Under the pieces are notes generated by a model. It made no database searches. It was not told where the DNA came from and saw only the letters and a list, made by a program, of their open reading frames with translations. Position numbers and translations under genes: made by a program. Positions 1-15,901 of a stretch of DNA of 51,897 nt are shown one piece after another. The first letter of the stretch is position 1. Each line of letters opens with the position of its first letter. Origin of the DNA: Candidatus Heimdallarchaeota archaeon (lineage in GTDB: Archaea > Asgardarchaeota > Heimdallarchaeia > Heimdallarchaeales > Heimdallarchaeaceae); the NCBI GenBank assembly GCA_018238545.1, contig JABCTC010000025.1, positions 1 to 51,897 on the forward strand. Direction: 5' to 3'.

Positions 1-1
1 T

Positions 2-970
2 TAACAATTTTATGGGTAATCTTCCTTTCTTTTTTCTTTTAAATGGTAATGGAACAACTTTTGCTACTGGGAGACCTTTAACTAACTGAGGGACACTCTG
101 CATGAAATGGTCAAAGAGTGTGAAAACAATTATCAGCCTGACAGCTGAAAAGAGTTTTCGGGAAGGTTTCCCAATTATCGTTGCTAGTTGTTCTGCTAGT
201 ATTTTGAGACTTTTCCAACGAGAAAGTTGAGGGTTGTTAATCCACGAGGCGAGAAAAGGGATAACTACTGCTTGCTCTTTTTTTAATAGTTGGAGTTTGG
301 CTAAAAAGGCTTGTTGCCTCTTAGTCACTTGGGGAATAGTAGCAAAAGCATTGTTGTAAAAGAACAGTGCGTCATCTATCGCTTGTACTATGTCTTGTTG
401 TGTTGTAGAAGGAAGGAAAGAATTGAAATGTAAATGGTTGGGGCTATAAATTACTTTCTTTTTCTTTCCCCAATATCCATCAGCTTGTTGTCTAGTGCTG
501 GTTAAGAGGTTGATAACGTACCTTCTTTTCAGTTTCCAATAGTTCCCTAAACTGCTTTCAGTATAAGGTGACCTACCAAAGATCATCCATTCTACAAGTT
601 GTTGAGGATTCTTAACAAGAAAGTTTAGCAACCCTTGTACTTTCTGTTCCTTCTCTCTTTTCCCCTTGATTGCTATATGCAACCAATGGAAAGCACTCTC
701 TGCTATGTTAGGACTCTTCCCCACTTCTTTGCATAGTTGGCGGGTGAAGAACCCTTCCTTAGGGTTGGAACTGTATAACGTTTCTGCCTTCTTTACTATT
801 CTCGGAGAAAGGAGGGGCAGTTGCTGTTCTTCTAGCTTTCTTATCCTTCGGTTGATCTCTTCTCGTTGGTGCTGGTCTACACATTTTAGCGCCACCTGGT
901 AGCTTCGCATCACCGTCTTTGAGTGAGTGTTGGCAGCTACTTGTGCTTTCTTTGTTGCTTGTGAGACCAT
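2..970 (-). CDS. tnpB: Large TnpB-like ORF B, N-terminal ~323 aa; runs off the window start
   Basis: Not in the ORF track. ATG at 970 gives MVSQATKK...VMRSYQVALKC..QREEINRRIRKLEE..NPQQLVEWMIFGRSPYTESSLGNYWKL, collinear with and highly similar to 12902..14845. GGTGA SD-like motif upstream. Confidence 0.9.
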   Translation of the reverse strand, partial: MVSQATKKAQVAANTHSKTVMRSYQVALKCVDQHQREEINRRIRKLEEQQLPLLSPRIVKKAETLYSSNPKEGFFTRQLCKEVGKSPNIAESAFHWLHIAIKGKREKEQKVQGLLNFLVKNPQQLVEWMIFGRSPYTESSLGNYWKLKRRYVINLLTSTRQQADGYWGKKKKVIYSPNHLHFNSFLPSTTQQDIVQAIDDALFFYNNAFATIPQVTKRQQAFLAKLQLLKKEQAVVIPFLASWINNPQLSRWKSLKILAEQLATIIGKPSRKLFSAVRLIIVFTLFDHFMQSVPQLVKGLPVAKVVPLPFKRKKKGRLPIKLL

Positions 971-998
971 TGTCTTCACCTATTTATCCACAGAATGG

Positions 999-1014
999 TA
1001 TATAAACGCGAAGA
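999..1014 (-). promoter_or_regulatory. Putative TATA promoter of ORF B (copy 1)
   Basis: Minus strand TTCTTCGCG-TTTATATA ~30 nt upstream of the ATG; the equivalent TTCTTCGGG-TTTAAATA precedes copy 2. Confidence 0.55.
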
Positions 1015-1301
1015 AAAGTCAGCTAGGAGGAGTTTTTCCTCATAACAAGATTGGGTAAGTTTCTGCTCATCAGTTGACTACGGTAATTATTTTACCTTTA
1101 ACAATAGCAAATTTCATCTTAATTATGTTTCATTCAAAGGAATTTTTAAACCTATTTGAAGGAAGATACAATGCCCCTCTACAAAACCTGAAAGTTAGTT
1201 GTTTGACGTATTGAAAGTATAAAAAAGAGCAAAACAATCAATTACTCCTCAAAGAGAGTAGGGTTTAAAAATTAAATTGTTTGTTTACCTATTGTGATTA
1301 T

Positions 1302-12256: not shown

Positions 12257-12724
12257 TTATTCATTGCGTTTCCACATCATTTTCTCGCCTTGTTTTATCT
12301 GTGTTAAAATTCCGGCTTCTGCCATTTGTTTTAAAGATCTAGCAAATTCTTCTTTAGTAATCGGGGGGTTTCCTTGTTTTAACACTGCGAATTGACAGGA
12401 TGCAAATATAGCATCTTCAAACATAAATTTAGAAGAGCTGAATGATTCTATGATTAAATCTTTATTAGGAATCTTAAAATCCTTAACAACAGTTTTTACT
12501 TTTTTAATTTCTCCTTTGCTAGAACCAATTTTTGAAATAATTAAATCTGCAATAATGTCATTTAATCCTTTTCCCTCTGTTTGTTCACTAAAACCATGAA
12601 GTTCAGCGATCAAAAAGGTTGCTTGTTGAACAAACGATTCCATAGATTCAAAGTAGTTTTCATCGACTAGTTTCTGTACATAGTTGTACAAACCTTCAGG
12701 GATTTTAATTTCAATAGGTTTCAT
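12257..12724 (-). CDS. Hypothetical protein with N-terminal ribbon-helix-helix-like segment
   Basis: Start placed at ATG 12724 (MKPIEIKIPEGLYNYVQKLV...F.S..SFV) after a GGAG SD; the ORF-track extension to 12856 is low-complexity flank. Confidence 0.65.
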   Translation of the reverse strand: MKPIEIKIPEGLYNYVQKLVDENYFESMESFVQQATFLIAELHGFSEQTEGKGLNDIIADLIISKIGSSKGEIKKVKTVVKDFKIPNKDLIIESFSSSKFMFEDAIFASCQFAVLKQGNPPITKEEFARSLKQMAEAGILTQIKQGEKMMWKRNE

Positions 12725-12850
12725 TAATATTACTCCTTTTATAATTATAAGATACATCCATACAGTTGAATTGCTTCTTATAGGTTTTTTCTTAGATGCG
12801 CCCAAAGTAAAACAAATTTTGTTAATATTTGTTATTGTAATTTGTTTGTT

Positions 12851-12975
12851 ACACACGTTATGAAACTTGGTTAAACTTGCCAGAAGGCGTCTAACCGTCG
12901 TTTAAGTGGGTTCCCTCACGTGTGTTGAGGGGAAGAGATCGGAAGGAAGGAGAGTACCTGGGAGGGAAGAGATGT
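12851..12975 (-). ncRNA. Putative omega-RNA (reRNA) scaffold of the TnpB-like nuclease; 5' limit uncertain
   Basis: Hairpin CCCUCA/UGAGGG whose loop ACACACG is complementary to the downstream CGUGUGU (pseudoknot); intervening stem GGUUAGAC/GUUUAACC capped by GCC-UUCU-GGC. Confidence 0.72.
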
Positions 12976-14845
12976 TATGCGCAGCGTTATCATGAGTGTT
13001 GACCATTTGACCACATTTACCACAAGGAGCAGAATCATACGAACCTGAACCAGGTTGACGGAGGATAGTCCCCCCACAGTTGTGATGGACACTGCTGGTA
13101 TGGTAAGGTTTGACCGTCTCCAAACGGACATCATAACCTAATTCAAGCGAAGCTAACCAGACAGCTTTTTTGTAAATGTAAAGGTTATCAGGCATATTGT
13201 AGATGGCTTTAGCCAGTGCTCCTTTGGTACCAGTAGGGTCAACCTCCAACTCTTCGATCTTCAGAGTATGGCACTTGTTCTTCACCATCACTGCAGCGAG
13301 GAAGTGGGGTAAACGACGGGTGATCTCACGAAGTATGCGACTTCTACGAGTATAGACTCTATTGAGTTCTCCCTTGAGCTTGCAACTGCCGAGAATGTCA
13401 TGCTCTTTACGTTTGCGGAGGAAACCACGGTTAAGTTCCTTCATAACTTTCTCTAGGTGCTTGTAACGTTCAGCTAGTTTCATCAAATCCTTAGGGACTG
13501 AAACAGAGGTGTTAAACGCTACCATAAACTCTCCCAAGCGGTTGATATCCAACCCCAGCACTTGTTTCTTGCCTTTAGGAATCTTTGGGAGATAAGTATG
13601 GAGAAGTTTGTGAGAGTGGAAACAGTCATGAGCGCCTTCTAGCACCACATCTACTCGAGGTTTGAAACAGGGAGCACTGCCGCTGCTTACTTGGAAAACT
13701 TTGATTTCGGCACCATTCTTCAAATATTCCAAGACTTTGGGGGGAAAGAGAACTTGAGCAGTAAGTTTCTTCTTGCCCATTTGCGGGAAACCTAAAGTGG
13801 TTCTACCATTGTTCTTTACTTGTCTGGTCAGATCTTTTGCATTCCCTTCACGGGTGATAACATAATCTTTTTTCATTAGTAGTTTTACTGGTAATCTTCC
13901 TTGTTTTTTACGTTTGAATGGGGGAGGAACGAGTGCAGTTATAGATAGACCTTGTAATAATTGAGGGACACTCTGCATGAAATGGTCAAAGAGTGTGAAA
14001 ACTACCACCTGCCTTACGGCAGAGAAGAGTTTTCGAGTAGGCTTACCTATTAATTCTGCTAGTTCCTTGGAGAGGTTTTTGAGACTTTTCCAACGAGAAG
14101 GGTGAAAACTGTTGATCCACGAGGTGAGAAAAGGAGCAACTATATTCTGCTCTTGCTTTAAGAGCTTGAGTTTATTGAGAAACGCTTGCTGGTTCTTCGT
14201 AAGAGTAGGTAGTTGTGAGAAATTATTGGTCTGGTGAATCAGAGCATCATCGATTGCTTGCACCACATCTTGTTGCTTGTAAGTAGGTAAAGCTCCATTC
14301 AACACCAGATTATTAGAGAAATAGTAGTTCCTCTGTTTCTTCTTGCTAAAACTATCTAGTTGCATCCTAGAACTGGTCAGAAGGTTGATGACGTACCTTC
14401 TCTGTAATTTCCAATATTTCCCCAGGCTGCTTTCGGTATAAGGCGAACGACCAAAAATCATCCATTCCACCAGCTGTTGAGGGTTCTTATGCAAGAAGTT
14501 GAGCAACCCTTGCACTTTCTTCTCTTTGTCTATCTTCCCTTTCACTGCTATCTGGAGCCAGTGGTAAGCGCTCTCAGCGATGTTAGGGTTCTTCCCCACC
14601 GCTTTCCCTACTTGACGGACAAAGTAGCGTTCTTTAGGGTTAGTGCGATAGAGGTCTAAAGCTTTCTTGACCACATCTTGAATGAGAAGGTCGTGCTGCC
14701 TCTCTTCTAAATTCCTAATTCTTCGGTTGATTTCTTCTCGTTGAGAGGGTGATGCACACTTCAGCGCTACCTGATAACTCCTCATCACCTTGTCTAAGTT
14801 AATAGGGGGAGAAGTTTTAGAGGTGCTTGCTGCTTGTGTGCCCAT
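12902..14845 (-). CDS. tnpB: Large TnpB/Cas12-like RuvC protein (647 aa)
   Basis: RuvC-I VLGLD433INRLG, RuvC-II LKIE531EL, P.HTSS, Zn site HxxC..CxxC, RuvC-III NTH618D619NAAHNI; lies downstream of IS607 tnpA. Confidence 0.88.
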   Translation of the reverse strand: MGTQAASTSKTSPPINLDKVMRSYQVALKCASPSQREEINRRIRNLEERQHDLLIQDVVKKALDLYRTNPKERYFVRQVGKAVGKNPNIAESAYHWLQIAVKGKIDKEKKVQGLLNFLHKNPQQLVEWMIFGRSPYTESSLGKYWKLQRRYVINLLTSSRMQLDSFSKKKQRNYYFSNNLVLNGALPTYKQQDVVQAIDDALIHQTNNFSQLPTLTKNQQAFLNKLKLLKQEQNIVAPFLTSWINSFHPSRWKSLKNLSKELAELIGKPTRKLFSAVRQVVVFTLFDHFMQSVPQLLQGLSITALVPPPFKRKKQGRLPVKLLMKKDYVITREGNAKDLTRQVKNNGRTTLGFPQMGKKKLTAQVLFPPKVLEYLKNGAEIKVFQVSSGSAPCFKPRVDVVLEGAHDCFHSHKLLHTYLPKIPKGKKQVLGLDINRLGEFMVAFNTSVSVPKDLMKLAERYKHLEKVMKELNRGFLRKRKEHDILGSCKLKGELNRVYTRRSRILREITRRLPHFLAAVMVKNKCHTLKIEELEVDPTGTKGALAKAIYNMPDNLYIYKKAVWLASLELGYDVRLETVKPYHTSSVHHNCGGTILRQPGSGSYDSAPCGKCGQMVNTHDNAAHNISSLPGTLLPSDLFPSTHVREPT

Positions 14846-14895
14846 CTTCTACTCGTACGTATAATCCTTAAATTGCTATTTAAACCCGAAGAATC

Positions 14896-15498
14896 TCACT
14901 TGTTCGGTGGTGCTTTTCCTCTCCTCTGTCTGTGCAACCTCCCTGCAAAAGAAGTGACGAGAGCGATCATATCTTCTACTAATTTTTTCTCTGCTGCTTG
15001 TTCTTCTTGTTGATACATGGGGATAACTTCTGTATCAAACGTTTGACAAAACTGGTTGATCACCTTCGTTCCGAACCTCGCTATCCTGTCTCTATACGTA
15101 CAGATGACAGCAAAAGGTTGTTTCGTTGCTACAGTTTTTAGTAGTGCGTGTAACCCTTTTCTCTGGTCGTTCATCCCCGAAGCAATATCTGTAAAAATCT
15201 TCTCTACCTTCCACCCTTTTTGCTTAGCAAAAGACCGTAGATGTTCTTGCTGGGTTATCAGTTCTTTCTTCTGTTTTGCCCCACTTACTCTCGCATACCC
15301 TATCACTATTTGTTTGTGCTGAGTGTCGTTCTTCTCCTCCTCTTTTTCTTCTTCTCCTATCATCTGGGAGAGTTTGTATCTCCTGTGTCCTCCTCTTGTC
15401 CTCTTGCAAGGGAGGATTCTTTCTTCCTTCTCCCACCTCCTCATAGTGCTAGCTGATACTCCTTGCATGTATGCTGCTGTGCCAATTCTTGCTAACAT
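14896..15498 (-). CDS. tnpA: IS607-family serine recombinase/transposase
   Basis: MerR-type HTH (AAYMQGVSASTMRRWE..RTRGGHRRY), catalytic YARVS, DIASG, DRIARFG, LVEDMIALVTSFAGRLH. Start at ATG 15498 preferred. Confidence 0.95.
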   Translation of the reverse strand: MLARIGTAAYMQGVSASTMRRWEKEERILPCKRTRGGHRRYKLSQMIGEEEKEEEKNDTQHKQIVIGYARVSGAKQKKELITQQEHLRSFAKQKGWKVEKIFTDIASGMNDQRKGLHALLKTVATKQPFAVICTYRDRIARFGTKVINQFCQTFDTEVIPMYQQEEQAAEKKLVEDMIALVTSFAGRLHRQRRGKAPPNK

Positions 15499-15724
15499 AG
15501 TTCTAATTTTACTGCTCTTACGAAAAATTTTCTGTTTTTTGGCAAGATTGAGCAATATTTCTTTCAGCTGTTGCTTACAGTAAAATGATATTAAGAGATG
15601 ATGGCGTCCTTTTCCCGCTTTTATATCCTTTGTGTGAAGCACATCTAAGCCGTCTCAACCAGTCATTCGCCAGATAAAAATTAAGGGAAAGCATGTTAAA
15701 TTTTTCTATATTGAAAGAAAGAAG

Positions 15725-15892
15725 TTATGTTGCCTTTCGACCGCGCTTATAAATTGTGTATCCACACTTTCCACAAGTCCATCTGTCTGAGTGTCCTGCC
15801 ATATATACGGCGTCTCCACACCTTTCACATTCTTTCTTTAATCTAATGACTTTATCTCCGTCTGCTTCATACCTTTTATGTGTTGAACTCAT
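15725..15892 (-). CDS. rps27ae: Ribosomal protein S27ae (eS31), 55 aa
   Basis: Not in the ORF track. Translates to MSSTHKRYEADGDKVIRLKKECERCGDAVYMAGHSDRWTCGKCGYTIYKRGRKAT; follows eS24. Confidence 0.95.
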   Translation of the reverse strand: MSSTHKRYEADGDKVIRLKKECERCGDAVYMAGHSDRWTCGKCGYTIYKRGRKAT

Positions 15893-15901
15893 TTCTTACA
15901 C

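Follow-up and report, generated by a model that had tools for sequence, protein, structure and literature searches.

An enlarged IS607-associated TnpB with histidine at RuvC-III in a Heimdallarchaeota archaeon

Introduction

Can a TnpB in which histidine stands in place of the last catalytic aspartate of the RuvC domain still cut DNA? The question is raised by a 647-aa reading frame in the window, by which we mean the whole stretch of 51,897 nucleotides analyzed here from a Candidatus Heimdallarchaeota archaeon (contig JABCTC010000025.1). For TnpB and Cas12 RuvC domains with His as the third residue, the substitution has been catalogued, and the one tested orthologue that we found was negative. 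Other RNase H-fold nucleases use His at the last position, for example Argonaute with its DEDH site and the RuvC of Cas9. The locus offers what a direct test of cutting needs: an intact gene, an RNA scaffold of ~85-90 nt, a putative TAM, a guide boundary and natural targets. An initial annotation, made from the letters alone, had proposed an IS607-associated TnpB of a distinct enlarged clade, with an altered or rearranged RuvC-III, acting as nuclease, nickase or binder.

The element and its insertion site

The reading frame is real and is the tnpB of a complete IS607 element (Table 1). An intact tnpA is situated 50 nt upstream of it and matches NF033518 with 171.7 bits (cut-off 110, E 1e-50); it has MerR and Resolvase domains, which bears out the proposed IS607 association. 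Comparison within the genome gave 27 right ends and 22 left ends in all, corresponding to positions 12851 and 15576; among the copies are full ones, tnpA-less ones and 400-nt MITEs with a promoter-like box and an RNA scaffold. Boxes resembling TTTAAATA also precede transposase-less copies and occur in MITEs. The MITEs on contigs C21, C43 and C90 of G000 (~400 nt) have the left and the right end, with a TATA-like box inside and the core of the omega-RNA, and are possible trans-acting guide cassettes.

All 22 left flanks in the genome read RCYGT (14 ACCGT, 6 ACTGT and 2 GCCGT), and the Y of the left flank is the same as the Y of the terminal YGT in each of the seven elements for which the two ends could be compared. 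In three relatives with ~90% nucleotide identity (L083-L085), rps27ae and the downstream gene still flank an empty site; the insertion is therefore recent, and the spacing of this empty site assigns ACTGT to the target. Terminal inverted repeats are absent, as the ends share only YGT and the inverted motifs are subterminal, and no target is duplicated beyond the common core, in agreement with the spacing of the empty site. The core dinucleotide is YG or GT and not GG, which is typical, not universal, for IS607. A group I intron, as in an IStron, was rejected, given that only ~75 nt separate the left end from tnpA and that no Rfam family matches within 12700-15900. Between rps27ae and the insertion site lies a non-coding stretch (15604-15672, minus strand) which is kept across the genus and closed by GGCG/CGCC; it has no Rfam match, its folding is not above that of shuffles, and the insertion parts it from the downstream gene. 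At the contig end (51783-51883) about six units of a 15-nt tandem repeat are found in a lysine/glutamate-rich reading frame.

Table 1. Features of the IS607 element and its surroundings, positions counted from the first letter of the window.
Feature	Position	Strand	Description and basis
IS607 element, complete	12851-15576	-	2.73 kb; ends defined by comparing same-genome copies
Target motif left of element	15577-15581	-	ACTG-T, putative TAM (RCYG) plus common core; host-derived; left flanks and empty-site spacing
Left end	15520-15576	-	Sharp boundary between copies
12-bp subterminal motif	15540-15551		Inverted counterpart in right end at 12872-12883; probable TnpA sites
tnpA, IS607 serine transposase	14896-15498	-	200 aa from ATG at 15498; MerR-type HTH and resolvase domain, YARVS motif
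TATA-like box TTTAAATA	14877-14884	-	~35 nt before tnpB start; putative own promoter of tnpB; sequence
tnpB	12902-14845	-	647 aa; WED strand 20-29, helical REC 30-305, WED 320-405, RuvC 425-630 with HxxC/CxxC zinc finger
Enlarged REC lobe	13931-14758	-	All-helical, ~275 aa, conserved, dN/dS ~0.1; no clear solved relative
RuvC-I D433	13547-13549	-	D-x-N-R motif; D and N435 invariant
RuvC-II E531	13253-13255	-	Canonical position; conservation counts
D604	13034-13036	-	Conserved acidic residue in zinc-finger hairpin, candidate fourth metal ligand; conservation counts
RuvC-III H618	12992-12994	-	Replaces catalytic Asp; conservation and profile alignment
Omega-RNA scaffold core	12851-12935	-	Overlaps tnpB stop, right end at 12851; covariation
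Predicted guide	12831-12850	-	Right-flank host DNA, complementary to empty donor site; conservation falls there in all copies, empty site in relatives
Second tnpB copy, transposase-less	1-1084	-	tnpB starts at 970 and is truncated by contig end; ACCGT flanks the left end at 1080-1084

The TnpB protein and its active site

The AlphaFold model of the protein (pLDDT 86, pTM 0.73) has the TnpB/Cas12 layout, with bridge helices in the RuvC domain and a zinc finger. Pfam and NCBIfam give a weak match to the TnpB/Cas12f C-terminus and nothing else, while the closest structural matches (Foldseek, VIA) are Cas12f and TnpB, among them the IS607 TnpB of ISFba1. The ~300-aa N-terminal region, for which the initial annotation recognized no resemblance, is not a separate domain but a REC lobe that follows the first strand of WED, and its ~275-aa helical insertion has no clear PDB match. 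We consider the insertion an enlarged REC lobe since it folds confidently when modelled alone (pLDDT 93), sits within WED and is all-helical. A fold search with it returned no Foldseek match at E below 0.001, and the best VIA match, to 81 residues of a mitochondrial RNA polymerase (Z 7.2), is at the background level for helical bundles; the lack of a clear PDB match for this insertion is no proof of a new fold. Its conservation in the second copy was correctly noticed, as the copy, which runs from 970 to the contig end, shows 65% identity along 323 aa.

Conservation was counted in 120 close homologues and in ~150 more distant representatives, with row totals that vary by position. D433 is found in 121/121 rows of the close and 102/102 of the distant set, where N435 is invariant as well. 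E531 is kept in 116/117 close homologues, and 120 distant rows have E in 104 and D in 15. The corresponding counts are 112/113 and 113/118 for H618 and 111/114 and 101/119 for D604. The zinc ligands H587xxC590/C608xxC611 are conserved, and D, E and H are near-invariant across the clade down to ~25-30% identity. The initial placement of D433 and E531 in canonical positions, of H618 and D619, and of the HxxC/CxxC zinc site is thus right, and so is the reading of His at the catalytic-Asp position of RuvC-III: the family profile aligns to CnCas12f1, AsCas12f and OsCas12f with no gap around RuvC-III, H618 taking the place of the catalytic Asp in NADxNAA and D619 that of the variable x. The accompanying suggestion that D619 might complete the site did not hold, D619 being a polymorphism that reads D in 13/113 close homologues and F, S, N, E, K, A, H or T elsewhere. 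Because H618 is kept and D619 is not, the site is D-E-H and not one with a shifted Asp. If there is any further carboxylate, D604 is more likely to provide it than D619.

Omega-RNA, guide and target motif

The scaffold occupies the final ~85-90 nt of the element. It consists of a hairpin (12912-12932) whose loop (12919-12925) pairs with the terminal seven bases (12851-12857) as a pseudoknot, and of an inner stem-loop. In an alignment of 49 copies 92% of the cells pair, and two-sided changes are seen at 12 pairs, compared with 4.5 in shuffles and at most 6 in slid controls; in the pseudoknot helix itself compensatory changes, with several different base pairs represented, occur at 4/7 pairs. 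No Rfam family matches the scaffold. From these features we infer that an omega-RNA is expressed from the right end. A guide-adjacent pseudoknot is known to be needed for the activity of IS607 TnpB (PMC10711439).

The window contains no CRISPR array and the guide derives from the flank. The 22 left flanks give RCYG(T) as the putative TAM. The element's own right end reads TGYG as opposed to RCYG in the target, so that the -3 position differs, and in CboTnpB the self/non-self difference, TCGG versus TGGG, is also at -3 (10.1101/2023.11.20.567912). Searching the genome with 27 guides, a weak test, revealed no exact self-target with TAM and guide.

Distribution and selection

Members of the family are from ~600 to 1784 aa long. 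Named homologues belong to Heimdall-, Thor-, Odin-, Hod- and Lokiarchaeia, but an Asgard-only range is unproven because many matches carry no taxon. The link to IS607 tnpA is old, since the distant members P0128 and P0134 also have tnpA upstream. Giant relatives of 1100-1784 aa (P0144, P0156, P0174, P0181, P0185, P0221 and P0224, at loci L079, L080, L230 and L232) are present in Odin, Hod and Loki lineages; they share the D-(E/D)-H RuvC, and their N-termini are long and match no annotated domain. P0174 gives a weak MazE/AbrB match. In the tree the mobile copies and relatives at 38-50% identity form one clade (100/99), which this tree cannot place among published branches because its canonical TnpBs are only two and sit on long branches. 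Two complete genomes from the same family (G044, G045) gave weak TnpB-family matches only, with one query, hence the family appears patchy within the host family. IMG/VR and INPHARED contain no viral member of the TnpB family, and plasmids gave weak matches to ordinary TnpB only. In the literature, the coverage of which is incomplete, we found no work on an Asgard or D-E-H TnpB lineage.

All domains of tnpB are under purifying selection (dN/dS 0.05-0.16), and the value is ~0.13 also among copies without tnpA. In 43 loci tnpB is intact in 39 and tnpA in 5, the former count being biased because the loci were found via tnpB.

Transposase-less cassettes and tRNA genes

Sister cassettes at 38-50% identity to the window protein lack tnpA, have the same pseudoknot scaffold and are in many cases found beside tRNA genes. 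Their guides are fixed and match the type of the neighboring tRNA (Cys, Asn, Leu, Pro, Ser), in the case of Cys and Asn directly behind RCCG. The host genome has one of them on contig C68, adjoining tRNA-Cys. Solo D-E-H cassettes whose guides match foreign alleles behind RCCG were observed at the ends of G000 contigs C49 and C68 (L203, L204) and at L059-L066, L097-L110 and L127-L148, their neighbors being tRNA-Cys, -Asn, -Leu(TAA), -Pro(TGG) and -Ser(GCT). Other solo relatives (L067, L077, L107, L109 and L076, L102) have fixed guides which match none of the tRNAs found here.

The target region in tRNA-Cys is hypervariable, with 20 variants in 23 genomes, and 13 genomes have the scaffold, with 13 different guides. 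The host's own allele is the best match for just one of these 13 cassettes, and there the TAM reads ACTT; in all seven hosts which keep ACCG the own allele differs from the guide at 4-7 of the first 12 nt. The best foreign allele has 1.6 mismatches on average. Since the host's allele is so rarely the one that fits best, the guide is not merely the host's own flank. Mismatch to the own allele is not significantly above the mean mismatch to foreign alleles (p 0.06 over 12 nt and 0.49 over 17 nt). In eight genomes tRNA-Cys averages 82% identity while their tRNA-Ser(GGA) is 96-100% identical; the control tRNA-Thr(TGT) is 93-100% identical over 21 genomes and tRNA-Ala 87-100%. This pattern of apparent escape alleles fits a cutter and suggests that the altered enzyme really cuts DNA, on evidence that comes from relatives at 40-50% identity and not from the window protein.

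Among the 80 viral tRNA-Cys listed, no contig is within 2 mismatches of the tRNA-Cys guides, so an anti-virus role is unsupported; one metagenome match was found, in a tRNA array. Unrelated cargo genes are present between repeated tRNA-Cys 3' halves at L205 (G001), L206 (G010), L207 (G008) and L203, and in such arrays, at several loci, no integrase is evident. In G001 the scaffold and guide are retained and the tnpB reading frame is absent.

Function of the protein

We think that the window TnpB is probably an active RNA-guided nuclease of retention or homing, which would cut the empty donor site. By analogy with known IS607 elements, TnpA would excise the element as a double-stranded circle and insert it at RCYGT, a target taken from the flanks described here. 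A transcript through the right end would give an omega-RNA with a pseudoknot and with flanking host sequence at its 3' end; TnpB would bind it, read a TAM of about RCYG and cut the empty donor site, whether this arises by excision or is encountered on a homologous chromosome, and repair after the cut would restore or spread the element. The RuvC domain would work through D433, E531 and H618, possibly aided by D604. This reading is favored by the near-invariant D, E and H, the low dN/dS, the tnpB that is intact in most loci, the compensatory changes in the pseudoknot, the self/non-self difference at -3, weakly by the lack of exact self-targets, and by the apparent escape of tRNA alleles. The last counts for cleavage because escape by tRNA-Cys alleles is what a cutter would bring about, but the same alleles could come from selection by a protein that binds an essential tRNA gene tightly and does not cut it. 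Doubt about activity comes from the one D-to-H protein that we found assayed, a RIIIr-4 orthologue from Nocardiopsis, which processed its omega-RNA and was negative in a dsDNA TAM screen; 32/59 orthologues were negative there (PMC10278001, file S2).

That result would also agree with an RNA-guided nickase, or with an enzyme whose activity is limited to omega-RNA processing or to single-stranded nucleic acid, with retention and homing through nick-induced recombination. His weakens the second metal site, and IsrB nickases persist in IS elements (PMC13565253); however, a single RuvC of the Cas12 type normally cuts both strands in turn, and the strong diversification of the tRNA-Cys target and of the TAM bases suggests lethal damage, which makes this explanation unlikely. 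We consider it quite improbable that the protein is a nuclease-dead, RNA-guided DNA binder like TldR, Cas12k or Cas12m, blocking or guiding TnpA or repressing targets. The catalytic Asp is lost, an enlarged REC could stabilize binding as in Cas12m, and some solo relatives carry fixed non-tRNA guides (L067, L076). In dead clades, on the other hand, the residues decay, whereas here D433 and E531 never do and the third position does not drift but stays His; the insertion sites share only RCYGT, and guides of mobile copies cannot choose new sites because they are arbitrary flanks. TnpB is dispensable for IS607 transposition (PMC13565253), but neutral cargo hitch-hiking on TnpA is largely excluded by the selection seen even in tnpA-less copies, together with the covarying RNA, and has very little probability. 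Least credible is a rearranged RuvC site completed by D619, which is present in the window copy but lies at the variable position described above. On the whole, the indirect sequence evidence favors cutting over nicking or binding.

A broader picture is possible, which we put forward tentatively and hold to be rather less probable than activity of the window protein: the D-E-H proteins, which span 600 to 1780 aa, would constitute an Asgard clade not described before and be active RNA-guided nucleases that have a novel REC fold and recognize RCYG as TAM; one branch of the clade, having lost its transposase, would act as RNA-guided homing endonucleases (natural gene drives) against competing alleles of essential tRNAs, driving hypervariation of tRNA-Cys and cargo capture between tRNA 3' repeats. 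If the sister cassettes are drives that target tRNA, they would account for the fast change of an essential tRNA and represent a further way in which OMEGA systems spread, one that needs no transposase. For the TnpB tool set, a 4-nt TAM containing GC and a large REC lobe of a new kind would be useful additions, and they would demonstrate that such proteins can grow without CRISPR. IS607 elements, the OMEGA-type layout of TnpB and, in another clade, the D-to-H change at RuvC-III were known already; the tRNA-Cys allele analysis of transposase-less cassettes and the giant members come from the present analysis.

Comparison with known systems

D-to-H at RuvC-III was described in the TnpB clade RIIIr-4, where it is predicted to be functional, in a study that reports six branches with altered RuvC-III (Altae-Tran 2023, PMC10691335). 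The claim of a distinct enlarged clade with altered RuvC-III therefore stands in part: the lineage is a distinct Asgard one which no checkable characterized clade matches, but the His swap was already published. RIIIr-4 likewise has His for the Asp of RuvC-III but is associated with RHH/MazE genes and has no zinc finger, while the window family has a zinc finger, NTHxNAA and a serine TnpA; the conserved H587, C590, C608 and C611 rule out membership, and the host genome has no RIIIr-4 sequences. The archaeal branches Ser-6 and RIIIr-6 of the same study, compared by description only, could include the window family, and its motifs are absent from the representative set of PMC10278001, in which some sequences are incomplete.

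The implied kinship to Fanzor2 found no confirmation. Association with IS607 and the TnpB fold (9b0l, Z 10.2) are common to both, but Fanzor2 and pro-Fanzor are recognized by DPG at RuvC-I and by an alternative Glu six residues before the zinc finger (PMC10711439). Here RuvC-I reads D-I-N, residue 581 is Tyr, and E531 is canonical, 56 residues before the zinc finger. TldR-type dead TnpBs have a decayed RuvC, an immobile locus and a fixed guide to a host promoter; they were rejected, as the window family is multi-copy with invariant D and E, a recent insertion and variable guides. The solo sister cassettes, though not the window element, resemble free-standing homing endonucleases such as SegB of phage T4, which cuts tRNA genes (cited in PMC13565253), in that they adjoin a tRNA gene whose foreign alleles are their apparent targets; their specificity would come from a guide RNA.

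Cas12f1 (8dzj, 8hr5, 7c7l) gave the best Foldseek/VIA matches (E 2e-9; Z 13.2, rmsd 4.8, 350 aligned) and has the same WED/RuvC/TNB layout, whereas the window system is transposon-borne, without CRISPR array or tracrRNA, and has a much larger REC. IS607 TnpB-omega-RNA systems (CboIStron TnpB, ISXfa1, ISFba1/8iaz) likewise have a serine TnpA followed by tnpB, no terminal repeats, no target duplication, a target motif overlapping the element end and a right-end RNA with a guide-adjacent pseudoknot. The fold of 8iaz (ISFba1) matches with Z 12.4 and rmsd 5.3 over 349 aligned residues at ~14% identity. They differ in size (~400 against 647 aa), in D-E-D against D-E-H, in GG and a G-rich TAM against the YG/GT core and RCYG target; the window protein has D-x-N-R at RuvC-I and an HxxC zinc finger, and its element has no intron. 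The canonical D-E-D of OMEGA systems is absent here; the WED-REC-RuvC-zinc finger architecture is present, as is a right-end RNA, pseudoknotted by covariation, beside a variable guide.
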